Source of the DNA: Candidatus Hadersleviella danica
GTDB lineage: Bacteria; Chloroflexota; Anaerolineae; Promineifilales; Promineifilaceae
NCBI GenBank assembly: GCA_016711405.1
Contig: JADJSZ010000094.1
Coordinates: 1 to 16,632 of the forward strand
Reading direction: 5' to 3'
Length of the DNA stretch: 16,632 bases
Under the pieces are notes generated by a model. The model was not told the origin of the DNA and did not search any database. It saw nothing but the letters and a program-made list of their open reading frames with translations. Below are positions 165 to 13,900 of the stretch, in pieces; position 1 is the stretch's first letter; every line of letters begins with the position of its first letter. The position numbers and the translations under genes are program-made.

Positions 165-356
165 TTATTCGACACCCATCTTGGCAAACATGCCGTGCCC
201 GACTGCTATCTCTGCACCGCTCTTGGGGCAGTCGAAAAGCAGGCGGCGCAATTCTTTCACCGTCATTTCTTGGTCGGAGATGTGAAAGAGAATTTGGCGC
301 AGTTCGTCGGCCGTGATGGTGGCAACTTCTTGGGTTTGGGGGTTGATTGTGGACAT
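165..356 (-). CDS. hypothetical 63-aa protein, immediately upstream of and co-oriented with the methyltransferase gene (probable two-gene operon)
   Basis: ATG with a GAGG Shine-Dalgarno ('gcgaggtatcATG' on the minus strand). Its stop lies 26 nt before the MTase ATG. A + strand ORF (156..428) overlaps it, but the minus-strand ORF has the better start context and fits the operon layout. No recognisable domain. Confidence 0.4.
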   Translation of the reverse strand: MSTINPQTQEVATITADELRQILFHISDQEMTVKELRRLLFDCPKSGAEIAVGHGMFAKMGVE

Positions 357-461: not shown

Positions 462-490
462 TTTACAAATCCTGAACTATTCTATACAAT
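462..490 (+). promoter_or_regulatory. putative sigma70-type promoter for the packaging operon (-35 TTTACA 462-467, 17-nt spacer, -10 TACAAT 485-490)
   Basis: Hexamers found by eye in the AT-rich divergent region. The spacer contains a CTGAACT copy (472-478). Confidence 0.3.
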
Positions 491-540
491 AAAAAGCGGT
501 AGACGGAAAAAATGAGGCAGAATCCAGTTACAGGGGCGGT

Positions 541-1254
541 GTGTTGGGTCACATCGCCCCACTTCCTATGCCACGGCCGACCTTTTTAGGCGGCCGTTTC
601 TTTTCCCCACACCCTATGGCAGATGCAGGGCGACCCCCCACCATAACCGATGACAGAATACTCAAGCGACTGCTTGAGGCGTTTGAGTGGGGCATGAACC
701 AAAAGGACGCGGCAAGGTACGCGGGCATTGCGCCCCAAACGCTATCGGCCGCGTTACGGCGCGGCCGTGAAGCGGACGAAGAAATGGCCGAGGGCGGGGC
801 GCGGGCTGGCAAAAAGCCGCTTACCAAAGATTGGCCATATGTGAGTTTTTACAGGCGGGTGGGGGAGGCGCGGTCAGTGATGGCGGCGCAAGCGGGGAAA
901 GCGGCCGTGAAACTGCTCAAGGGCGGCCGTAAGGTGACTGAGGTCACAACCGAGATTTACAGCATCATGGAAGCGGGGGAGGGCAAAGAACCCGTATTCG
1001 TGAAAGTAAAAGAGACGCGGGAAAGGCGGGTAGAAGAGTTACCCCCCGATTCGGCCATGACCCGCTTTGTCTTACAGCACAATTGGGGCAAGAGCGACGG
1101 CGCAAGCACGGCCGAAAGCGAGGGCGAGGGCGACACCATCAGCCCCGAACAGGCCGAGCAAGCCATGCAGAAACGGGCGGTGCAAGCGTTCGACGCTTTG
1201 CACTTGTTTGACGGCCTTGTGGAAGGGCAAGGGGAGGATGATACCTATGAGTAG
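541..1254 (+). CDS. terminase small subunit (putative). The start is uncertain: GTG at 541 with an AGGGG Shine-Dalgarno, or ATG at 616
   Basis: N-terminal HTH-like segment 'DDRILKRLLEAFEWGMNQKDAARYAGIAPQTLSAALRRG'. Acidic C-terminus. Its stop overlaps the start of the large terminase (ATGAGTAG). Position is immediately upstream of terL. Confidence 0.55.
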   Translation: MLGHIAPLPMPRPTFLGGRFFSPHPMADAGRPPTITDDRILKRLLEAFEWGMNQKDAARYAGIAPQTLSAALRRGREADEEMAEGGARAGKKPLTKDWPYVSFYRRVGEARSVMAAQAGKAAVKLLKGGRKVTEVTTEIYSIMEAGEGKEPVFVKVKETRERRVEELPPDSAMTRFVLQHNWGKSDGASTAESEGEGDTISPEQAEQAMQKRAVQAFDALHLFDGLVEGQGEDDTYE

Positions 1255-2702
1255 CCAACCACGAACCCCCACCAAACGCTTCCTGTTTCTGACCCAGCAC
1301 CTTGACTTGCCCCGCGCTTCGGGCGTTGACGATGCCCAATGGGAGCATTTTCAAGTGGCTCATTTGTGCGACGATGGGCAGTTCAGGATAGAGGACAAGA
1401 GCCGCCAAATTGCGTGGTCTTTTCTGGTGGCAATGGAAGCCACGGCCGAGGCCATTCTGGAAGGGCAAAGCTCCGTTTTCGTCTCTATCAATCTCGAGGA
1501 GGCCAGCGAAAAAATACGCTATGCCAAATCAGTTTTAGAGAACATCCAAAACTACAGGCTCCCCCAAATCATCCGCGACAACACTTTCGGCCTCGAGTTT
1601 GACAACGGGGCGCGGATTATGTCCCTGCCCTCGAGGGAGCCACGCGGCAAGGCGCGGATGAATGTCTACCTTGACGAGTTTTGTCACATCATGCGGGATA
1701 GGGCGATTTACTCAGCGGCCTTACCCATGATAAGCAAGGGCGGCCGTTTGCGGATTGGTTCAAGCCTGATGGGAGCGAGTGGGCAACATTGGGAAGTCAG
1801 CCAACAACGGTTACGGCCGTATCCGGGCTACACCCGCTCCGTAACCCCGTGGTGGAAAGTCAAGGCGTTTTCCAACGACGTGCGGACGGCTTACCAGCTT
1901 GCGCCCGAACATGCCCACGGCCGAGCGGGTGGAACGATTCGGCAACCAGCGCATTCGGGCAATTCACGACAACATGCACAGCGAAGATTTTCAACGCGAG
2001 TATGAATGTGTGTACGTGGACGAAACCAGCGCATGGTTCCCTTGGGAGGAGATTCAAGCCATTCAACAGCCCTCCCTCTACACGATTACGGCCGATACAC
2101 GGGGCGAAGCGGTGAGCAAGGCCATGAACGCCATAGCTGAGTTGAAAGCGGCCGTGACGCGGGGCGTGGTGGAAACGGCAATGGCCGTGGGCATAGACGT
2201 AGGGCGCACCCGCAACGCCACTGAAATCTTTGTGGTTGGTTGCACCACAACCGATACCTACCCCTTGCGCCTGACCCTCACCCTTGAAAATGCCAGTTTC
2301 GACACCCAGCTTGCGGTAGCGGCGGCCGTGTTCGACACCTTGCCCATTAAGAAAGGGTACATAGACCAGAACGGTATCGGCCGTAACCTTGCCGAGCGGC
2401 TCGAGAAACGCTTCCCCAGCAAGGTTGAGGGCGTGGATTTTACGGTGCAATCTAAAACGGTTTGGGCGACTGATGCAAAAATGCTTGCCCAACAACTCAA
2501 GGCCATTATCCCCGCTAACAGGGACTTGGCTTACCAGATTCATTCAATTAAGCGCACGATAACGGGCGCGAAAAACATGGTTTTCGACACCGACCGCACC
2601 GAAAAGCACCATGCCGATAAGTTTTGGGCATGGGCGTTGGCTCTTTCGGCCGCACGGGTCAAGGTCATGGTTCCTCGAGAATTTTCTAATCCAAGGCGGT
2701 GA
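1247..2702 (+). CDS. terminase large subunit (lambda gpA / Terminase_6-like), interrupted by an apparent +1 frameshift between about 1845 and 1905. Segment 1247..2005 is in frame 2 and 1845..2702 in frame 0
   Basis: The N-terminal half has the deviant P-loop 'DKSRQIAWS' (compare lambda gpA KSARVGYS) and a Walker B 'MNVYLDEF'. The C-terminal half has 'FQREYECVYVDE' and nuclease-domain acidic motifs 'AVGIDVGRT', 'GYIDQNGIG' and 'HHADKFWAWA'. The two halves are in different frames; frame 0 opens at 1845, directly after a TAA, at a CCCC run. The combined length is about 485 aa. SD GGAGG lies upstream of ATG 1247. Confidence 0.8.
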
Positions 2703-2706
2703 CAAG

Positions 2707-4144
2707 ATGATTGAAATTACAAAAGAGATGGATAAGCGGCTGATGGGCATGATAATGGGCGAAGTGGCCAATTACATGCAATCGGTTGCGCCCACTTTGA
2801 GCCAACGGCCGAAACTGGCCGCCATGCAATCCATTGGTGGCTACACGGGCGGGGCGATAAACCGCACAACGCACGGCGGCGATAGGGAGATTGATACCGT
2901 GCTGGGGCGCACAGCAACCGATTCGGCCACGTTTGATGTGTTTATGACGTGGTTCAAGCGCGACCCCGTGGCCAATGCCATGATTAGCAAGCCCGTATCG
3001 GCCACATGGCGACGGCCGCCCCAAATTACCGACGGGGATGCAAACGATACCCCGTTTTGCAAAGGCTGGAAGCAATTGGTCAAGCAAAAGAAGATTTGGA
3101 CAACGTTCCCCCGCCTTGACCGCCTCGCCATGTTGGGCAAGTACGCGGTTTTGCTCATTGGCTTTTCAGATGTCAAGAGCGACGCGGATTTAGCCACGGC
3201 CGTTAAGGAAAAGCAATTCAAGCGCGGTTTGGACGATGTCTACTTTTTGCGGCCGTATGGCGAAGACCAGATTAAGAAGATAACGAACAATGTTGACCCT
3301 TCCAGCCGTCGCTATGGCTTGCCCGAAACCTACACCCTCGTTGAAAGCATTGTCGTTTCCAGTGACGCGGCTCCTACCACCAAAGAGATAGATGTGCATT
3401 GGAGCCGTATCATTCACGCGGCCGATAGCACCATGCAAAGCGGCCTTGGAGGGGATTCCCTTTCTCTTGCCCGTCTTAGATGACCTCGAGGATTTGGCCA
3501 AGACCATTGGCGGCGCGGCTGAATCGGTTTGGCGGGCGAGTGGGCAAGATATTGTCATGGCCATGAATGAGGGCTATGAGTTCCCCACCGAAGCCGCCCG
3601 CGAAGATTTTACCGAGCAATTGCGCGACCGTGTCAATCAGCTTGTGCGGTCAATTATCACTACAGGCGGCAATCCCCAAATCGTTCACGCCACGGCCGTT
3701 GACCCGACGGGCATTGTGACCGCCATTTACAAGCGGCTTTCGGGCTACAGTGCCATCCCCTTGCGTATTCTGTTAGGGAGCGAGGCGGGGCGGCTGGCCA
3801 GTGACCAAGACGAAGGGAATTGGGCGGCGCACATTGCGGCGCGGCAAGTGGAGTATGCGGAGGATAGTATCTTGCGGCCGTTCATTGACCAGATGGTTTA
3901 CACGGGGGTATTGCCCGCGCCTGAGAGCGACGAAGGCTACGACGTGGGCACGTATGACCCCAAACACGACGCATGGATTTGGCCGAGCATTGAAGAAGCC
4001 AATGAAATGGAAAAAGCCGAAATTGCGGACAAGCGGGCGAGTGCCATGCAGAAAGCGGCCGATGTCGCGGCCGTCAACGGTTCCTTGGATGACAACGACG
4101 TGCGCGGCTTTGGCGGCTTGCCCCCCCGCGAAGATGAGGCGTAA
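2707..4144 (+). CDS. portal protein (probable; DUF1073 / HI1409-like by gestalt and position), interrupted by an apparent +1 frameshift near 3449-3453 (GGGG). Segment 2707..3483 is in frame 1 and 3392..4144 in frame 2
   Basis: It sits directly downstream of terL (stop 2702, ATG 2707 with a GGTGA Shine-Dalgarno). The two consecutive ORFs together give about 479 aa. The C-terminal part 'SAIPLRILLGSEAGRLASDQDEGNW...ILRPFIDQ' and 'GIPFLLPVLDDLEDLAKTIGGAAE' resembles portal C-terminal regions. The assignment rests on gene order and motifs, not on a search. Confidence 0.6.
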
Positions 4145-4147
4145 CCC

Positions 4148-4897
4148 ATGCCCACGCCTGACCTCTCATTCACCCCGCCCAACGACGGCGAAATAGCGGC
4201 CGATGTGCGCCAATCGTTTGCCCGTGTGGAAACGATTGGCCGCGTCATGGCTCTATGGGGCAAGTACGCCTCGTTGAAAGACTTGCCCCGCTATCCGCTC
4301 GACCCGCAAACGGGGCAATTCGTGCAACCAAACGGCCGCTTGCTCCCCTTTGCCGTGGTTCGTGCCAATGTGCAACGGCTGGCCAATGGCGTAGGGCGGG
4401 GCGAATTGGGGGAGATGACCAAGCGGCTCCAAAAGGGCAACGTGCCCCTTGCCGAGTGGTACAGCACCATGCGCGATACCAGCCGTGACGCTTATTTAGC
4501 GGCCGTGCTGGTTGCCTTGGGCGGGATTAGCCGACTGACCGCCACAACGCCCCAAGCGTGGGAGGGGGTGTACCAGCTTGCCGAGTTTCAAGAGCGCAAG
4601 CTCAGGGATATGGCCGTGGATTTGCAACGGGATTGGGAGGGGAAAAACACGGCCGCTTACAGCCGGGCAATCATGTACGGCGCGGCCGTGTATGGCGTGT
4701 TTGGCAACAGCAACCGCTTCTTAATGGACATTTTGGGCTTTAACCAAGAGCGGCGGGTGTTGGCTCCAGCCGAGCATTGTACCGATTGTGTGGGCTATGC
4801 CAGCGTGGGCTGGCGGCCGATAAATTCACTCCCCCCCATTGGCGATAGCAAGTGCCTATCCTATTGCCATTGCAGTTTTAGATTTAGGCGGGTGTAA
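4148..4897 (+). CDS. head morphogenesis protein, phage Mu F / SPP1 gp7 family (minor capsid protein)
   Basis: Position after the portal. C-terminal signature 'EHCTDCVGYASVGW...PPIGDSKCLSYCHCSF' matches the C-x2-C ... PP ... C-x3-C-x-C motif of Mu-F-like proteins. 'LAEWYSTMRD' lies in the core. Confidence 0.7.
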   Translation: MPTPDLSFTPPNDGEIAADVRQSFARVETIGRVMALWGKYASLKDLPRYPLDPQTGQFVQPNGRLLPFAVVRANVQRLANGVGRGELGEMTKRLQKGNVPLAEWYSTMRDTSRDAYLAAVLVALGGISRLTATTPQAWEGVYQLAEFQERKLRDMAVDLQRDWEGKNTAAYSRAIMYGAAVYGVFGNSNRFLMDILGFNQERRVLAPAEHCTDCVGYASVGWRPINSLPPIGDSKCLSYCHCSFRFRRV

Positions 4898-4917
4898 CTG
4901 GCCAGACTACGCCCGCC
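4887..4917 (+). terminator. hairpin overlapping the gp7 stop codon (stem GGCGGGTGTA / TACGCCCGCC, 11-nt loop), not followed by a U-tract. It may be a weak terminator or an RNA-stability element
   Basis: Inverted repeat read from the sequence. The missing T-run is why confidence is low. Confidence 0.2.
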
Positions 4918-5228
4918 TCCCATATATAGATTGTTCCCCTGCTTGTTGCCGTTGTCACCTCCTTTTGCAGTGAAGTACAGTTCAGATTGTAGCACAAAAT
5001 AAACCAGTCTATGTCTATCAACCACTTAAACCCCCTGACCGCCTCCGATATTTTCAAGCGTGTAACCAATGCCGATAGCGGCCGTGCCTACATGGTGCAA
5101 GCTGACGTATGTGGTCATTGATGGGCAAATCATGGTGCAAACCGTCGCCCCCCACCGCTTCGAGATGAAACAAGGGGTAAGCATGTACGCCGTGTTGGGC
5201 GAGCTGACCGACGCGCTAAATCCTGCTC

Positions 5229-5258
5229 TTGAACTTTCTGAACCGACTGCGGTATAAT
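5229..5258 (+). promoter_or_regulatory. putative promoter P1 (-35 TTGAAC 5229-5234, 18-nt spacer, -10 TATAAT 5253-5258)
   Basis: Near-consensus hexamers. The -35 element and spacer are themselves built from a TTGAACT-tt-CTGAACC direct repeat. Confidence 0.35.
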
Positions 5259-5280
5259 CTTTTTTCAGTCTCCTCTCTGC

Positions 5281-5328
5281 GGCCGTTGGTTAGTGACCCA
5301 AAACTAGCCAACGGCCTATTTTTTTTGG
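5281..5328 (+). terminator. rho-independent terminator T1 (13-bp stem 5281-5293 / 5304-5316, 10-nt loop, then TATTTTTTTTTT)
   Basis: GGCCGTTGGTTAG ... CTAGCCAACGGCC is perfectly complementary apart from one G-U pair, followed by a 10-T run. It lies only about 20 nt downstream of the P1 -10 element. Confidence 0.7.
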
Positions 5329-5345
5329 CTATTTTTCTGAACTTC

Positions 5346-5374
5346 TTGACCTGTTTTTGATTTTCGTTTACACT
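5346..5374 (+). promoter_or_regulatory. putative promoter P2 (-35 TTGACC 5346-5351, 17-nt spacer, -10 TACACT 5369-5374), with a CTGAACT copy abutting the -35 element
   Basis: Hexamers and spacing read from the sequence. The predicted transcription start is about 5381. Confidence 0.35.
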
Positions 5375-5458
5375 ACTATGCGATAGGCAAATTGTTTGCC
5401 ACCAATCGAATAACACCAATTCCCGTTAGGCCGTGAATCGGCCGTCTACCACCCAAAA

Positions 5459-5502
5459 GGCGGGCACACAACCAAAAAGTGTTGTGTGCCCGCCTTTTTT
5501 TT
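5459..5502 (+). terminator. rho-independent terminator T2 (perfect 14-bp stem GGCGGGCACACAAC / GTTGTGTGCCCGCC, 8-nt loop, 8 Ts), ending 11 nt before the ATG of the scaffold gene
   Basis: Perfect inverted repeat plus TTTTTTTT, read directly from the sequence. Confidence 0.8.
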
Positions 5503-5512
5503 GTTTCCACCT

Positions 5513-6709
5513 ATGGAACCCGAACAAACAGGCGAATCCACAACCCCAGAGCAAGAGCAAACGGCCACCGAAACCCATGCGGCCGTCGCCCTTGCCGCGC
5601 CCGTCATGGTTAACCATGCCCTGCAAATCAACCGCGCCGCCATCCGCTACGAAGCGTTCAATGGCGACAACTTCATGGTTGCCCCGTTCGTGGGCGCGGT
5701 CGAAGGGGTAATGAACGGGGCACTGATTTTGGCCAGCGAGTTAGAGCAGAGCGCACCGCTCTACCCCGATAGCCCTGTTGTTGTAGGCCATCCCACGGTA
5801 AACGGTGCGCCTATCAGTGCCAAGGGTCAGCCCATCCCCAAAATCGGCCGGGTCTACAACACGGCCGTGGATGGTGACAGGTTGACGGGCGAGTTATGGG
5901 TGAGCCAACGCGCCGCCCAATCTGCCCCCCGTGGCCAAGAGGTACTAGACAACCTCGCTACGGGCAAGGTCAACGAAGTGAGTTGGGGCTGGTGGATGCA
6001 AGCCGAGCCAGCCCAAGGGGAGTTTAAGGGCAAGCCCTACGCCGTCATCGGCCGCAATTTTATCCCCGACCACTTAGCCATTTTGTTAGATGTGCCCGGC
6101 GCGTGTTCTGTAGCCGACGGCTGTGGAACGCTCCGAGCTAATCAAGCCCTGACCGTCAACTGCGATTGCGGTTGCTCTGGGCATGTCGTCAATCCCAATC
6201 CATCAATCACAGGAGAAAAAACTATGACGGGTAACACCCAAGTAGACGCTCCCATTGAAGAGGACGAGGTTGTTGACGCTGTGGAAACGAGTGGGGCGCA
6301 AATCCCCGCCCCGACTGCCCCAGCGCAACCCGATTCCGCTTCTTTGGAAGTGAACCAAGTGCAAGCGGTGAAAGCCGAGCTTGCCAAACTGGCTGATTCG
6401 TTTGCCAAAACAAATCAGTTGGTTGCCAACCAGAACAAGCTCATTGAAGAGCTGTTAGGCGAACGGAAAACCCAAAAGCAACAGGCGCGTGAAGCGCAAA
6501 TTGCTGAACTGGCCACCTACGCCAATCAGCCGTTCAGCGTGGCCACGTTGAAAACTTTCAGCGACGAAGCCCTTGCTGAACTCGAGGGCAAGTTCCGCCC
6601 CGCTTACATGGCGGGCATGGGCATGAGCATCAACGGCCGCACCACGACCGCTGACCCCAACATGGGCTATGCGCCCGCCGCGCCCTATCTCTTTGGGGAG
6701 GTGAAGTAA
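5513..6709 (+). CDS. putative scaffolding / prohead-protease-like protein (DUF2213-like gestalt)
   Basis: Acidic Pro/Glu/Thr-rich N-terminus. A central domain ('VSWGWWMQAE', 'FIPDHLAILLD'). A Cys cluster 'CSVADGCGTLRANQALTVNCDCGCSGH'. A low-complexity Pro/Ala linker. A C-terminal coiled-coil-like Ala/Glu/Lys/Gln region typical of scaffolds. It lies just upstream of the capsid gene. There is no Shine-Dalgarno; the start codon follows T2. Confidence 0.5.
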   Translation: MEPEQTGESTTPEQEQTATETHAAVALAAPVMVNHALQINRAAIRYEAFNGDNFMVAPFVGAVEGVMNGALILASELEQSAPLYPDSPVVVGHPTVNGAPISAKGQPIPKIGRVYNTAVDGDRLTGELWVSQRAAQSAPRGQEVLDNLATGKVNEVSWGWWMQAEPAQGEFKGKPYAVIGRNFIPDHLAILLDVPGACSVADGCGTLRANQALTVNCDCGCSGHVVNPNPSITGEKTMTGNTQVDAPIEEDEVVDAVETSGAQIPAPTAPAQPDSASLEVNQVQAVKAELAKLADSFAKTNQLVANQNKLIEELLGERKTQKQQAREAQIAELATYANQPFSVATLKTFSDEALAELEGKFRPAYMAGMGMSINGRTTTADPNMGYAPAAPYLFGEVK

Positions 6710-7144
6710 ATGACTACCACAACGGGTAATCCCTACACCATTTTCCTGACAGGCCGCGACCGCACCGTTTTTGACGAAGTGGCCGTGACCGATGCCGTGG
6801 TTAAGCCCGGCATGTTCTTGGCTCGCACAGCCACAGGCGCACGGCCGCAAAACGTAGCCGCCGCCGCCGCTCCCTCGCTGGTTGCCACCGAAGCCACCGT
6901 ATTCGAGGGCACGATTGAAACCGAATTAGCCGTGGGCGAACGGGTTCAGTTTGGCAACGCCTCGGGTTGTCACGTCTACGCCATCTTGCTTTCGGGCGAG
7001 AACGTGGCCGCTGGTGCGAAGTTGACCCACGACGGCACGGGCAAATTGGCCGCCCTCGGGGTTGACGAAGTTTGGATTGCGACCGCCTTAGAAGCGGTAG
7101 ACGCAAGCGCGGCGGATAAACGAATCCGCGTGGAGGTGCTGTAA
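6710..7144 (+). CDS. small head-associated protein (possibly a decoration or auxiliary capsid protein), 144 aa
   Basis: GGAGGTG Shine-Dalgarno. The start overlaps the upstream stop (TAAATG). It lies between the scaffold and the major capsid gene. Function is inferred from position only. Confidence 0.45.
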   Translation: MTTTTGNPYTIFLTGRDRTVFDEVAVTDAVVKPGMFLARTATGARPQNVAAAAAPSLVATEATVFEGTIETELAVGERVQFGNASGCHVYAILLSGENVAAGAKLTHDGTGKLAALGVDEVWIATALEAVDASAADKRIRVEVL

Positions 7145-7146
7145 CC

Positions 7147-8136
7147 ATGAACGCTGAATTTGCAACCATTGAACTGGTGTCCCAATTGGACATCAACAAA
7201 ATGCGCCCCATCGCTGGCTTCCATGCCAACGCGCTTTTGCGGCAAGACGATTGGCGCACGATTGACGACGCGGTCGTGAAAGTCGCTCGCCAAAACCTGA
7301 GTGTTTTGGATGACCTCGCCCGTTTCGGCCTTGTACGGCCGCCCGCTGGTTTGGGGCTGATGTTCAGTTCCTACGAACAACAAAGCGAACTGACCACGGC
7401 CAACGTGGACATGGCGGCCGACACCCGCGCCGAAATGTCCAACCTCAACCACACGACCATCAACATTCCTGTGCCCATCATCCACAAAGAGTTTTCTCTG
7501 AACGCTCGGGTGCTGATGAATAGCCGCATGAACCGCATGGAAGGGTTGGACGTTAGCCACGCCGAAAGCTCTGCCCGGCGCGTGGCCGAAGCCATCGAGG
7601 ACATGATTATCAACGGCGTTTCGTTGACCGTGAACGGTTCCACCATTCAGGGCTTGACCAACGCTACCAATCGTGTCACCGACACCGCTACCAACTTTGG
7701 CGGCGGGGCGTGGAGTACGGCGGGGAACGCCTACAAAACCATCAACGGCATGATTGCTGGCATTGAAAACAAAGGTTTCTATGGCCCTTATGGGGTCTAC
7801 GTGGCCAACAACTTGTGGAGCAAGCTCCGCAATCTGATTAGCACCGAATCGGGCAAGTCTGAAATGGCCGCCCTCATGGAAAACCTTGGTTTGGCCACAG
7901 GCGGGCAAGTCGCCTACGTCAAGCCCTCCCGCTCCCTTGCCGCTGGCACGGCCGTCTTGTTCCAACTCACCAGTGATGTCATTGACATTGCCACGGGCGT
8001 TGGCATGACCACCGTCCAATGGGAAGAGCAAGGCCGCTTGACCAGCAATTTCCGCGTCATGGCGGCGATGGCGCCTCGTGTCAAGTACGACGCTTCCAGC
8101 AATTGCGGTGTGGCTCATGCCACAGGTGCGCTCTAA
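7147..8136 (+). CDS. major capsid protein (HK97-fold, DUF2184 / encapsulin-like type, inferred)
   Basis: 329 aa. Strong GGAGGTG Shine-Dalgarno. It lies immediately after the scaffold and small head protein. The composition and length are typical of this MCP class. The long antisense ORF 6976..8118 covering it is low-complexity and rejected. Confidence 0.7.
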   Translation: MNAEFATIELVSQLDINKMRPIAGFHANALLRQDDWRTIDDAVVKVARQNLSVLDDLARFGLVRPPAGLGLMFSSYEQQSELTTANVDMAADTRAEMSNLNHTTINIPVPIIHKEFSLNARVLMNSRMNRMEGLDVSHAESSARRVAEAIEDMIINGVSLTVNGSTIQGLTNATNRVTDTATNFGGGAWSTAGNAYKTINGMIAGIENKGFYGPYGVYVANNLWSKLRNLISTESGKSEMAALMENLGLATGGQVAYVKPSRSLAAGTAVLFQLTSDVIDIATGVGMTTVQWEEQGRLTSNFRVMAAMAPRVKYDASSNCGVAHATGAL

Positions 8137-10926: not shown

Positions 10927-13900
10927 CGAAAAAGACACCTTAGAGATAGAAGTCAAGGCCACGTTGCAAGGCGACGCGGCGTTCAAGTCTATTCTGAGTG
11001 ACCTTGAGAAAATCCGCAAAGAAGCGGATAAGGTCAAGCAATCGGCCGCTGGCATTGGCGGGGCGAGTGGGAGCATTAAGAGCGCGGCCACGGCCTTGGG
11101 CGAGGTTGAATCAGCCGCAAAAAAGGCGGGCAAGGGCGTAGGGGAAGCCGAAAAATCCACCGAATCAGCAGGTAGCGCGTTTACCAAAATGAGTGGGCTG
11201 GCCACGGCCGCATGGGCGGCGGCGGGCGCGGCCGTGACTGCGTTCGTGGTTGATTCGGTCTCCCAATTCATGGCCTTTGAGAAGGGCATGGCCGAAGTCT
11301 TTACCCTGTTGCCGGGCATATCAGGCGCGGCAATGGACGCAATGACGGCCGATGTGCGCGCCTTTGCCCTTGAATCGGGGCGACTGCCTGACGAAGTTGT
11401 GCCCGCCCTCTACCAAGCTATCAGCGCGGGCGTTCCCCAAGCCAACGTATTTGACTTTATGAAAGTGGCCAGCGACGCGGCTTTAGGCGGCGTGACTGAC
11501 CTCGAAACGGCCGTGGACGGTATCACGTCGGTGGTCAATGCGTATGGTTCAGAGGTAGTTAGCGCACAACAGGCCAGTGACATCATGTTCACGGCCGTTA
11601 AGCTGGGCAAAACCGACTTTAGCCAATTATCCGCCTCCCTCTTTAATGTCATCCCCACGGCCGCCGCCTTGGGCGTTTCGTTTGAGGACGTAGCGGCGGG
11701 GTTAGCGGCCGTGACTGCTCAGGGCACACCTACCAGCGTCGCCACAACCCAAATGCGGCAACTGTTTGTGGAACTGAGTAAGGAAGGGGGAAACACCAGC
11801 CGCATCTTTAAGGAAATAGCGGGCGTAGGCTTTAAGGAATTTTTAGCGCAAGGCAACAGTCTACAGGACGGCTTGCAACTCCTTGAAGAGTACGCCGCCA
11901 AAACCAACGTTGGTATCAACGACCTCTTTGGTTCGGTGGAGGCGGGCAGTATCGCCCTTGGTTTGACAGGGCAAGGGACTGAGAAATTCACGGCGGCCGT
12001 GCAAGAGTTTGGCAACGTGACGGGCGCAACAGGGCGGGCGGCCGATTTGATGGGCGAAACCACGGCGCAATCAATGGCGCGGGCAAGCGCGGCCGTCAAC
12101 GAACTCAAATTGATGTTGGGCGAATCACTCGCCCCTGCTTTGGCACAAACGGCCGAAGCTGTGTTAAGCCTTGCCAACATCGCCCTCCCTTGGCTGGCAA
12201 GCAACTTGAACAAGTGACCGTTGACAGGCGCGTTTGCCGACGGCATGAGCATCATAGCGGGTGAAAGCGAAGCTGTGGAGCGAACCGTAGCAGGTGTGGC
12301 CAATGTGGTAGGCGACAACGCGCTTTCGGCCGCTGAAAAGATGGCGCAATTGGACGCGGCCATTAGCAACGCGGGCACGGGCGGCCGTGTGTTTGGCCAC
12401 GCTGAAGAGATTGAAGCGGGCATGGTGCAGGTGGCTAAGGCCGTTGTCACGGGTGCAACCTCTTACGAAGATGCAATTGCCCGCATGAAAGAAGCGGGAT
12501 TCGAGATGGACGCGGAGGGCATGAGCTTTACCAGCCCTCACGAATGGGAAGCGTTTCAAGCGGCATGGGCACAAGTGGAGCAGGGCGCGGTCTTTTCGGC
12601 CTCCCAAGTCATGTCCCGCCTTGTGGACGTGAGCGGGGCGTATGCCCACACGGGCAAAGAAGCCGATGACGCGGCCGTGTTTATCACCGACTTGACCGAG
12701 GAGTTGGAAAAGAACGGCCGTGCTTACGAACAAGCGACTGAGGCCACGGCCGCCAATGAGCAGGTCAACGAACGCATTGCCAAGGTCAATGAAGCCGCGT
12801 TAAGCACCAGCGAAGCCAAAAACCAATTACTGAAAGAGGAAGCCCTAAGCGCGGGCAAAACGGCCGAATCCATTGCCGAATACGAAGCGGCAACCAAAGC
12901 GGCTTTGGCCGCTACACAGGCGTTTGTGCGGGATTCGACAGGCGCGTTTAACAAGTCGGGCAACATCTTTGGCGACGCTTTCCAAGAGCTTGAAAAGGCC
13001 GAAAACGCGCAAATCAATCTGAACGCGGGCACGGTATGGGCGTACAACCAAGCCTCTAAAGAAATAACCGAAATCAGCGGCCAATTAGCGGCCGATTTGA
13101 GCGAAGACCAGCAAAAAGCGTTCCAAGAAATCTTGGGCACGGTAGAGGAAGGGTCAGCCGAATGGCTGAGCGCCTACAACGCTTTGCAAGGCGATTTAAG
13201 CGACAGTGCCCGGCAGGGTCTTGTGGCGCAAATGGCTGAATTGCAAGGGGAGGCAGGCGAGTTAGCGGGCGGCGGGTTAGAAGCGGTGTACGGGGCTGAC
13301 ACACGGGCGGCCGAAGAAGCCCGCGCCGCCATCGAGGAAGCCAATCAAGCCATCATTGCCAGTTACAAGGCGACCACGTTTGAGGCGTTGCTGGCTCAAA
13401 CGGGCGTGACCGAAAGCACGTTAGCTTTCGGGCGTTCAATTGGGCATTATGACCGAGGCAGAGGCGGCGGCGCGGCTCGAGTTTACCAATACCACCCTCG
13501 CCCTGACCACGCTGGCCAGCTCGCAAGAATTTGCGGCCGCTTCCACCCGTGACCAAGCGGAGGCCGCGCAACTGCTTATTTTGGGCTACGCCTCTTCAGC
13601 GGAGGAAGCGGCCACAATGGCGGCCTCCATATCCGACAAGGGCGGCTTATCCGAATCCCTGTTAGCGGCCACAAGCCAAACCGAACAACTGAATCTTGAA
13701 TTAGCCAAGCTCGAGGGCGACAAAGAAAGCAAGGTCAGCGTGAGCGTGGACGGCATTGAATCGTTGCGCGAAGCCGTAGGGCTGACCCAGCAAATGGCGG
13801 GCGGCGGGCGCAAAGACGGCGCGGCCACGGCCGCTTTGCCCGAAGCCCGTGCCGTGGGCGGGGACATCAGCGCGGGCAGTCCCCTACATGGTAGGGGAGC

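Follow-up and report, generated by a model that had tools for sequence, protein, structure and literature searches.

A Conserved Promoter–Terminator Unit between the Packaging and Head Genes of a Phage Clade and Its Possible Role as a Late-Transcription Checkpoint

The 16,632-nt stretch of DNA analyzed here (contig JADJSZ010000094.1), referred to below as the window and used as the reference for all positions, carries on its plus strand the head and tail genes of a tailed phage or prophage. Within it, 615 nt separate the stop codon of a gene for a gp7-like protein (position 4897) from the next annotated start codon, that of a prohead protease/scaffold-like gene (ATG 5513), whereas every other plus-strand junction is short. 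A first-pass annotation, made from the letters alone, had pointed out this gap and the tight packing around it, and had read the interval as a gene-free island that houses two tandem promoter–hairpin–U-tract units, of a kind that often holds small or regulatory RNAs. Comparison with related phages bears out the second part of this reading, because both units are conserved in relatives, and overturns the first: a conserved small gene, ORF78, occupies positions 5011–5257 and is frameshifted only in the window. The downstream unit, which extends from promoter P2 through a predicted noncoding RNA (RNA2) to terminator T2, is the older core element of the island. The best explanation of the whole, put forward tentatively and as nearly an even bet, is that ORF78 has been broken in the window, that the upstream unit (P1/T1) was gained, and that P2–RNA2–T2 would serve as a promoter-proximal termination checkpoint. 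The elements of the island are as follows.

4886–4918, plus strand: hairpin over the stop codon of the gp7-like gene, with 11-nt inverted-repeat arms and no U-tract
4919–5010, plus strand: AT-richer spacer, 42% G+C
5011–5257, plus strand: ORF78, a conserved gene of 78–84 aa in relatives, split in the window
5229–5258, plus strand: P1, TTGAAC-18-TATAAT, overlapping the 3' end and stop codon of ORF78 and holding the 13-mer GAACTTTCTGAAC
5265–5326, plus strand: RNA1, predicted, about 60 nt, with 5' single-stranded CAGUCUCCUCU, the T1 stem-loop (5281–5316), and a U-run (5319–5326)
5335–5374, plus strand: P2, with upstream TTCTGAACTTC, -35 element TTGACC (5346–5351), 17-nt spacer, and -10 element TACACT (5369–5374)
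5381–5506, plus strand: RNA2, a predicted RNA, noncoding as judged by its frame-breaking indels
5455–5498, plus strand: T2, 18-bp stem, with a T-run at 5495–5502

Relatives of the window phage are rare in sequence collections. Phage GenBank records held no DNA or protein match to it, GTDB genomes searched with a gp7 alignment gave no relative, and IMG/VR, queried with the gp7-like, protease, and major capsid proteins and with three DNA patterns, yielded one 31% match and nothing else. Exact-block scans of genome and metagenome contigs returned one match each, and both proved on inspection to be unrelated chance matches. A large protein index contained four homologues of the gp7-like protein at 53–97% identity, whose contigs were fetched; two more contigs were obtained through a search with the small open reading frame (ORF) of the island and three more distant ones through a profile search. 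All contigs were retrieved in part, as partial genomes. About six lineages were found, all from metagenomes. Five of them are close to one another (the window, L002–L005, L008, L010, and L011), with gp7 DNA identities of 82–95%. L017 is a distant lineage that has the island, and the pair L018/L019 is more distant still.

P2–RNA2–T2 is present in all six lineages that extend far enough, including the distant L017. P2 itself (TTGACC-17-TACACT, 5346–5374), listed in the first-pass annotation, was recovered by a consensus scan. Across the window, however, promoter-like sites number 12, compared with 7.8 ± 2.9 expected by chance, which is no excess, so that P1 and P2 owe their support to comparative conservation and not to the scan. 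Among the five close lineages, all 13 ungapped columns of TTCTGAACTTC and the -35 element are invariant, as are five of the six columns of the -10 element (TATACT in L008), and only 11 of the 17 spacer columns are. In L017, the spacer has been largely replaced (tgaattaaataatagtt), with TTGACC, the 17-nt spacing, and TATACT retained. Hexamers that are kept while the spacer between them is replaced are the pattern left by a working promoter.

T1 and T2 are by a wide margin the two strongest intrinsic-terminator shapes in the window. A strict scan of both strands, which demanded a perfect stem of at least 10 bp followed by at least six T in eight positions, gave three matches, two of which are T1 and T2; 60 dinucleotide shuffles gave a mean of 0.12 matches and a maximum of 1. 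The two terminators start 22 to about 80 nt past P1 and P2, the sigma-70-type promoter matches. T2 lies where the annotation had placed it, and its 18 pairs are all unbroken across six lineages, two of them with double changes (one A-U, G·U, or G-C; the other C-G or A-U). The stem lies about 75–120 nt past the predicted P2 start, and in each of the six lineages about 10 nt separate the end of the U-run from the protease ATG. Invariant hexamers, variable spacers, and stems kept by compensatory change, found in both promoter-to-terminator units, are what would be expected of working elements.

The length predicted for RNA2 is about 125 nt in the window; close relatives have about 111 nt and L017 about 80 nt. 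Between lineages it has undergone indels of 14 nt (window only, 5396–5409), 2 nt, 1 nt, and about 27 nt (L017), and the first three of these rule out a conserved ORF on either strand. The sequence CGAUAG lies near the 5' end of RNA2. A candidate mini-ORF, AUG-CGA-UAG, is absent in L017. Fold z-scores range from -5.9 to -11 across lineages, with -6.5 for the window. Two C-rich blocks, ACCACCAAUUCCCGUUA and CUACCACCCAAAA, are left unpaired, and within the close clade 32 of their 34 columns are invariant (18 of 19 in seed A and 14 of 15 in seed B). When the window insertion is left out, 106 of the 118 columns (90%) in 5375–5512 are invariant in five lineages, compared with 306 of 442 four-fold degenerate sites (69%) in the gp7, protease, and capsid genes of four lineages. 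Invariance above that of four-fold sites indicates that RNA2 is constrained beyond its structure.

The main clade and L017 have in common the promoter, CGATAG near +1 (about +1 to +8), ACCACCC just 5' of T2, and T2 itself, as well as the U-run-GTTTC..C-CTATGG context that leads to the protease start. L017 lacks the first C-rich block (seed A) and the small RNA2 hairpin at 5429–5443. This hairpin has a fixed stem and a loop that varies (UGAAU, UGAAA, UCAGA, or AGA), and it is given little weight, its arms being copies of the hyper-abundant palindrome CGGCCG. A scan of Rfam 15, a check that had been proposed for the island, produced no match at the gathering threshold, and E values up to 10 gave only bare hairpins far below it. 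A covariance model of RNA2, R1, found no paralogue in any fetched locus, including the small terminase leader described below. The sequence upstream of T2 contains no complement to the 5' arm of the terminator, so that no attenuator-type alternative fold was seen. On the comparative evidence, P2 to T2 is probably a functional noncoding transcription unit. As a separate observation, the 14-nt insertion found only in the window (GTTTGCCACCAATC) is a copy of the CCACCAAT block of RNA2 and adds a 6-bp hairpin, GGCAAA-UUG-UUUGCC, near the 5' end.

The upstream part of the island is occupied by ORF78. In the window alone, a 36-aa ORF (5011–5121) and a 62-aa ORF (5069–5257) appear in different frames. 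A single extra base at about A5105, present in the window only (GCTGACGTATG versus GCCG-TGTATG; GCTGACG versus GCCG-TG), splits the gene into these two pieces. In L002–L005, L008, L010, L011, L017, and L018/L019, ORF78 is called as an intact gene (2107–2343 in L002, 10783–11028 in L008, 2794–3048 in L010, 3029–3274 in L011, and 251–484 in L017), and its start is an ATG that matches window position 5011. Over the first 59 codons, variable sites among five lineages fall 5/5/25 by codon position, and L010 carries an in-frame 3-nt insertion; this bias, together with the in-frame indel, indicates a translated gene under purifying selection. Judged by this pattern of substitution, ORF78 is almost certainly a real gene, and the gene-free island seen in a single sequence may be an artifact of one indel.

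Homologues of ORF78 extend to 32–39% identity (39% for L017), and even the most divergent of them, at 32%, lie directly 3' of a gp7-like gene, as in every other relative. L018/L019 have the portal first, then a 243-aa gp7-like gene, ORF80 starting 2 nt later, and an RNA-ligase-family gene another 10 nt on. Such tight packing marks ORF78 as a core partner of the gp7-like gene and not a moron, and it is the last gene of a portal/gp7-like/ORF78 block. ORF78 has no match in Pfam, NCBIfam, or PDB, and among PHROGs there is only one weak match, to phrog_10894 (E 3e-4), a family of unknown function. AlphaFold models built from 3 and 6 sequences reached pLDDT values of 49 and 55 and give a low-confidence prediction of a helix-strand-strand-helix fold.

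ORF78 is preceded in the window by two features that had also been annotated correctly. The hairpin over the gp7 stop codon (arms 4886–4896 and 4908–4918; -19.1 kcal/mol, z -3.2) is not a canonical terminator because it has no U-tract. Its stem is preserved in L011 by change on both sides (AGACGGG...CCCGTC), and lineages with a short spacer have a different hairpin at this position (GCGGC..GCCGC). The AT-rich stretch at 4919–5010 stands at 42% G+C compared with 57% for the window. About 83 nt of it are found only in the window, L002–L005, and L011; L007, L008, L010, and L017 are without them, and ORF78 begins there 25–75 nt past the upstream stop. A weak promoter-like match, P0 (4952–4981, 9 of 12 consensus positions), lies within the spacer, and its -35 element is degraded in L002.

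Unit 1 (P1–RNA1–T1) resembles unit 2 in layout and differs from it in distribution. P1 matches the consensus at 10 of 12 positions, joint best in the window, and the T1 stem of 14 bp, followed by T8, begins 22 nt past the P1 -10 element, so that the RNA of about 60 nt calculated in the first-pass annotation is arithmetically correct. Predicted RNA1 folds at -27.8 kcal/mol (z -6.95). In four lineages all 14 pairs are unbroken, with one compensatory change and one change from G·U to G-C. Both P1 hexamers and the predicted 5' end of RNA1 are invariant in these T1-bearing lineages, and of the P1 spacer columns 12 are invariant, 4 vary, and 2 contain a gap, the result of a 2-nt length change in L002. 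The segment that begins just past the P1 -10 element and runs through the T1 tail is present in the window, L002/L005, L010, and L011 and is cleanly absent in L008 and the outgroup L017. It was probably gained once, and by this distribution unit 1 appears younger than unit 2. In L008, which lacks T1, the P1 hexamers are degenerate (TTGAGG...CATAGT), which hints that P1 and T1 act together, the co-occurrence resting on one event. T1 also occupies the position where a terminator of ORF78 and of the packaging operon would lie, and it is possible, as the annotation had allowed, that T1 ends that operon and that the match to P1 is incidental.

Based on these comparisons, a simple model would place transcription of the head genes under the control of T2. 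Host sigma-70 RNA polymerase would start at P2 and stop at T2, some 10 nt short of the block of protease/scaffold, decoration, and major capsid genes, and termination would release a short RNA. With a strong terminator 3' of their own promoter, P2 transcripts could reach the capsid genes only by read-through, and the head and tail genes would come to be transcribed only once a phage-induced change makes the polymerase terminator-resistant. P1 and T1 would give the RNA of about 60 nt, and T1 would in addition stop transcripts of the packaging operon. The short RNA2 may also act in trans. Sequence comparison shows ORF78 with its frameshift, the layout and conservation of the promoters, RNAs, and terminators, and the noncoding character of RNA2; we infer promoter activity of P1 and P2, termination at T1 and T2, and regulated read-through. 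Antitermination gating as the role of P2–T2, a proposal made by analogy, is held at somewhat less than even confidence.

A similar layout is found at the head of the packaging operon.

462–615, plus strand: promoter–leader–hairpin unit, similar in layout to P2–T2, ahead of the small terminase gene

Its promoter, TTTACA-17-TACAAT (462–490), is the best match in the window, lies in a divergent promoter region (357–615), and contains CTGAAC in its spacer. About 120 nt of leader follow, closing with a GC-rich hairpin (about 573–598) and then TTTCTTTT, 18 nt before ATG 616. The leader starts with GCGGTAGAC 5 nt past the -10 element, and RNA2 starts with GCGATAGGC at an equal distance. The relative L006 has an identical small terminase leader sequence, and L008 has a different, 15-bp terminator-like hairpin at 6097–6129. 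The protease and small terminase starts are both without a visible Shine-Dalgarno sequence and share a (C)CTATGG context after a U-rich tract, unlike internal genes, which carry GGAGG. No other promoter is visible for the small terminase, so that polymerase must pass the hairpin; chiefly for this reason the terminated-promoter layout is read as a control device and not as a set of independent small RNA (sRNA) genes. The recurrence suggests that control of this kind applies to the late operons of the phage in general.

The arrangement is reminiscent of the PR'/6S/tR'/Q system of lambdoid phages (lambda, 21, 82, P22, and the Stx phages), in which late genes likewise stand behind a sigma-70 promoter with a strong intrinsic terminator within about 80–200 nt of it, a small gene lies directly upstream of the promoter, and a short RNA is made without the antiterminator. 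PR' fires constitutively, its transcripts are terminated just downstream, and a short RNA arises as a by-product (PMC7547250). The transcript starts also resemble each other over 15 nt: TGCGATAGGTAAATT at the start of RNA2 agrees with AACGATGGGTTAATT, from the initial transcribed region of lambda PR', in 11 of 15 positions, in a post hoc comparison with a 2-nt register shift from the -10 element. In L017, RNA2 starts with CACGATAG, and its CACGAT has A2, A5, and T6 in common with the lambda pause element AACGAT; the main clade has TGCGAT. This resemblance is treated as a lead only. In other respects the systems differ. The lambdoid unit occurs once, before the lysis genes, whereas P2–T2 sits well inside the structural module, with the packaging genes on one side and the head genes on the other, and the layout apparently recurs before the small terminase. 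RNA2 is shorter than the lambdoid RNA and unrelated in sequence, tandem units are present in four lineages, and no Q-family gene was found in the partial contigs fetched. P2–T2 is an unclassified example of a promoter-proximal terminated short phage transcript, and its placement inside a structural module is unusual.

Several observations weigh against a checkpoint of this kind. The main-clade TGCGAT is without the key A2, and the -10-like pause element is not convincing there. No Q-like, N-like, or other antiterminator was found among the proteins of the window and of the fetched parts of L006 and L008. ORF78, which stands in the position of Q, has no similarity to any Q family in Pfam, PHROG, NCBIfam, or PDB, and its homologue in L018/L019 occurs without a promoter–terminator unit after it. 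The tandem arrangement of P1/T1 and P2/T2 is not a lambda feature, and the hairpin before the small terminase, whose U-tract is interrupted, may terminate only weakly. Finally, unpaired RNA2 sequence conserved in all but two of its columns suits a trans-acting or protein-bound RNA better than a pure by-product.

Resemblance to the antitermination signals of other phages is partial. Like lambda nut boxB, the small RNA2 hairpin combines a 5-bp stem with a pentaloop (GGCCG-UGAAU-CGGCC) of similar size in a promoter-proximal leader. Unlike nut boxA/boxB and HK022 put, its loop varies among lineages, the hairpin is missing from L017, and there is neither a boxA-like sequence nor a two-stem fold. 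If the P2–T2 checkpoint holds, promoter-proximal termination would govern the late genes of this little-sampled phage clade at two or three places in the structural module, an arrangement that would carry the lambda paradigm over to a different layout in which no Q is recognizable. If P2–T2 works, one or two phage sRNAs would be added to a class that has been proposed as a rich source of regulators (PMC7547250).

The alternative that survives best, possible though rather unlikely as the whole explanation, is that RNA2 and perhaps RNA1 are stand-alone trans-acting sRNAs, whose C-rich blocks (ACCACC..., UUCCCG, CUCCUCU) would form duplexes with G-rich stretches of host or phage mRNAs, for example at ribosome-binding sites; any influence of the terminators on transcription of the head genes would in that case be of secondary importance. 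Both units have the build of sRNA genes, with a promoter, 60–125 nt of RNA, a strong terminator with 7–10 U, and no ORF, and they look intact although the protein genes of the window carry many lesions. The unpaired blocks are conserved above synonymous sites within the clade, RNA1 begins with an invariant segment, and the window insertion duplicates the CCACCAAU block. Phage short transcripts that act as Hfq-bound sRNAs provide a precedent (PMC7547250). However, a duplex scan of the three unpaired blocks against the 16.6-kb window found no target above shuffled seeds, and exact-block and pattern searches found no copy of the RNA in another context in genome, metagenome, or viral collections. 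Of the unpaired and hairpin elements, L017 retains only ACCACCC. The unit is, moreover, always attached to the protease start, and a free-standing sRNA gene leaves the similar layout before the small terminase unexplained. The sRNA and checkpoint readings are compatible with each other, as the case of StxS illustrates. StxS of the Stx phages and IsrK of Gifsy-1 are short RNAs from antitermination-controlled phage promoters that have acquired a regulatory role. Like RNA2, they are short terminated transcripts with conserved unpaired sequence and a long U-tail, although RNA2 shares no sequence or Rfam similarity with them. By this analogy, a dual role of RNA2 as by-product and regulator is plausible.

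A second alternative holds that only the terminators matter. T1 and T2 would end the packaging operon, from the small terminase through ORF78, and insulate the head genes; P1 and P2 would be fortuitous or unimportant, and the head genes would be reached by leaky read-through or from an unrecognized promoter. The lack of an excess of promoter-like sites across the window, the location of P1 partly in coding sequence, and the position of T1 directly 3' of the ORF78 stop are consistent with this idea. It is nonetheless unlikely. The P2 hexamers and upstream block are invariant in six lineages despite divergence of the spacer, L017 included, which is difficult to account for unless P2 works as a promoter, and a stretch of about 75 nt of conserved RNA separating P2 from T2 would have no explanation. 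The 10-nt gap between T2 and ATG 5513 leaves no room for another promoter, and intrinsic terminators with an 18-bp stem and 8 U are unlikely to be leaky enough for expression of a major capsid protein.

It is likewise distinctly improbable that RNA2 is primarily a cis-acting 5' leader that controls translation or stability of the protease/scaffold message in the manner of IsrK in Gifsy-1, which is cited as a precedent (PMC7547250). In one variant of this reading, a 5' stabilizing hairpin would be combined with a U-rich loading site for ribosomal protein S1. The absence of a Shine-Dalgarno sequence at the protease and small terminase starts, both directly after a hairpin and a U-rich tract, speaks for such a leader. 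The fold predicted for the read-through RNA, on the other hand, shows no conserved pairing between leader and start region, and read-through of T2 would still be needed, so that cis control would add to the checkpoint explanation and not replace it.

A bolder variant, which we regard as a long shot, would join ORF78 and P2–RNA2–T2 in a new compact antitermination module. As a product of the packaging operon, the small protein with its predicted alpha-beta-beta-alpha fold would attach to the ACCACC repeats that abut the 5' arm of T2, or to polymerase at P2, and open the terminator. Expression of the packaging genes would then license expression of the head genes, with P1/T1 as a functional duplicate in four lineages. 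The original view of truly gene-free noncoding DNA, drawn from a window that shows no ORF longer than 62 aa and none with a Shine-Dalgarno sequence, has next to no chance and is already refuted by an ORF78 that is intact and under purifying selection in all relatives.

The idea that the island may be a moron entry point, also raised in the first-pass annotation, holds for the junction and fails for the gene. Aligned against its relatives, the island proves conserved in ORF78 and P2–T2 and variable in the 83-nt spacer and the P1/T1 segment, which are present or absent independently of each other among close lineages. The junction between the gp7-like and protease genes also varies in distant phages with the same head-module order. 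In L015/L016, 73 nt that contain no terminator lie between a MuF gene and the protease; in L014, three small minus-strand genes (5264–5901) come after MuF. In L018/L019, the RNA-ligase-family gene lies directly after the ORF78 homologue (2481–3248 in L018). Such variability is shared with morons. In contrast to morons, ORF78 occurs in all relatives and is tightly packed in L018/L019 without signals of its own, and P2–T2 encodes no protein.

The genes around the island are arranged as follows.

From ATG 616, plus strand: small terminase, first gene of the packaging operon
1067–2702, plus strand: large terminase, appearing as two overlapping ORFs
About 2611–4144, plus strand: portal, appearing as two overlapping ORFs
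4148–4897, plus strand: gp7-like protein, 249 aa, stop TAA at 4895–4897; phrog_24776, a family of unknown function
5513–6709, plus strand: prohead protease/scaffold-like gene (DUF2213/Pa193_gp24), first gene 3' of T2
6710–7144, plus strand: decoration-like gene
7147–8136, plus strand: HK97-fold major capsid gene, followed by the tail genes

The label gp7 is based on position alone, and BLASTP found no similarity between the gp7-like protein and the MuF protein at the equivalent position in L015. At its C-terminus (window 4775–4897), C211, C214, C236, C240, and C242 are invariant within EHCTDC...KCLSYCHC, which suggests a zinc-binding tail. ARAGORN found no tRNA or tmRNA in the window.

The appearance of the large terminase and portal genes as two overlapping ORFs each was the first sign of frameshifts. 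Compared with intact relatives, the window has indels at 1911, 2063, and 2097 in the large terminase, at 3448 in the portal, and at 12211, 12221, 13429, and 13881 in the tape-measure gene, where the first two jointly produce an in-frame TGA. With the lesion in ORF78, at least nine indels of 1–2 nt split the large terminase, portal, ORF78, and tape-measure genes. They reflect either an indel-prone assembly or a decaying prophage.

The palindrome CGGCCG occurs 92 times in the 16.6-kb window, compared with about 9–13 copies expected (about 7- to 10-fold). It is similarly enriched in L006, L008, L010, and L018; the enrichment is absent in L014 and L015. In the genes examined, 45 of 60 copies lie in the codon frame nCG-GCC-Gnn. 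CGGCCG supplies the arms of the small RNA2 hairpin, the base of T1, the arms of the small terminase hairpin, and others. Its abundance is reminiscent of the cyanobacterial HIP1 palindrome, and it may be a signature of the host or the clade. Uptake sequences of the Neisseria type were looked for, and none occur in the window.

A second recurrent motif is associated with promoters. TCTGAAC has seven copies in the window, compared with 1.0 expected, a number reached in 0 of 200 shuffles, and four of the copies lie at promoter regions. The wider motif (C/T)TGAAC, often as tandem 9-mers, is found at 378–390, 472–477, 4980–4986 (minus strand), 5231–5243, and 5336–5342, and it may be a common operator or promoter-associated element. 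The 13-mer noted in P1 has exactly two copies, the other being at 378–390. A 63-aa gene (165–356, minus strand) that diverges from the packaging promoter region has a predicted promoter at 425–397, and the 13-mer falls at about +1 to +13 of its predicted transcript. The 63-aa protein has no family match and could be a regulator. In L006, the whole divergent promoter/leader region is duplicated (4040–4300 and 6190–6470) on either side of a minus-strand N6/N4 methyltransferase gene (4576–5994), and a truncated gene that resembles the small terminase lies after the first copy.

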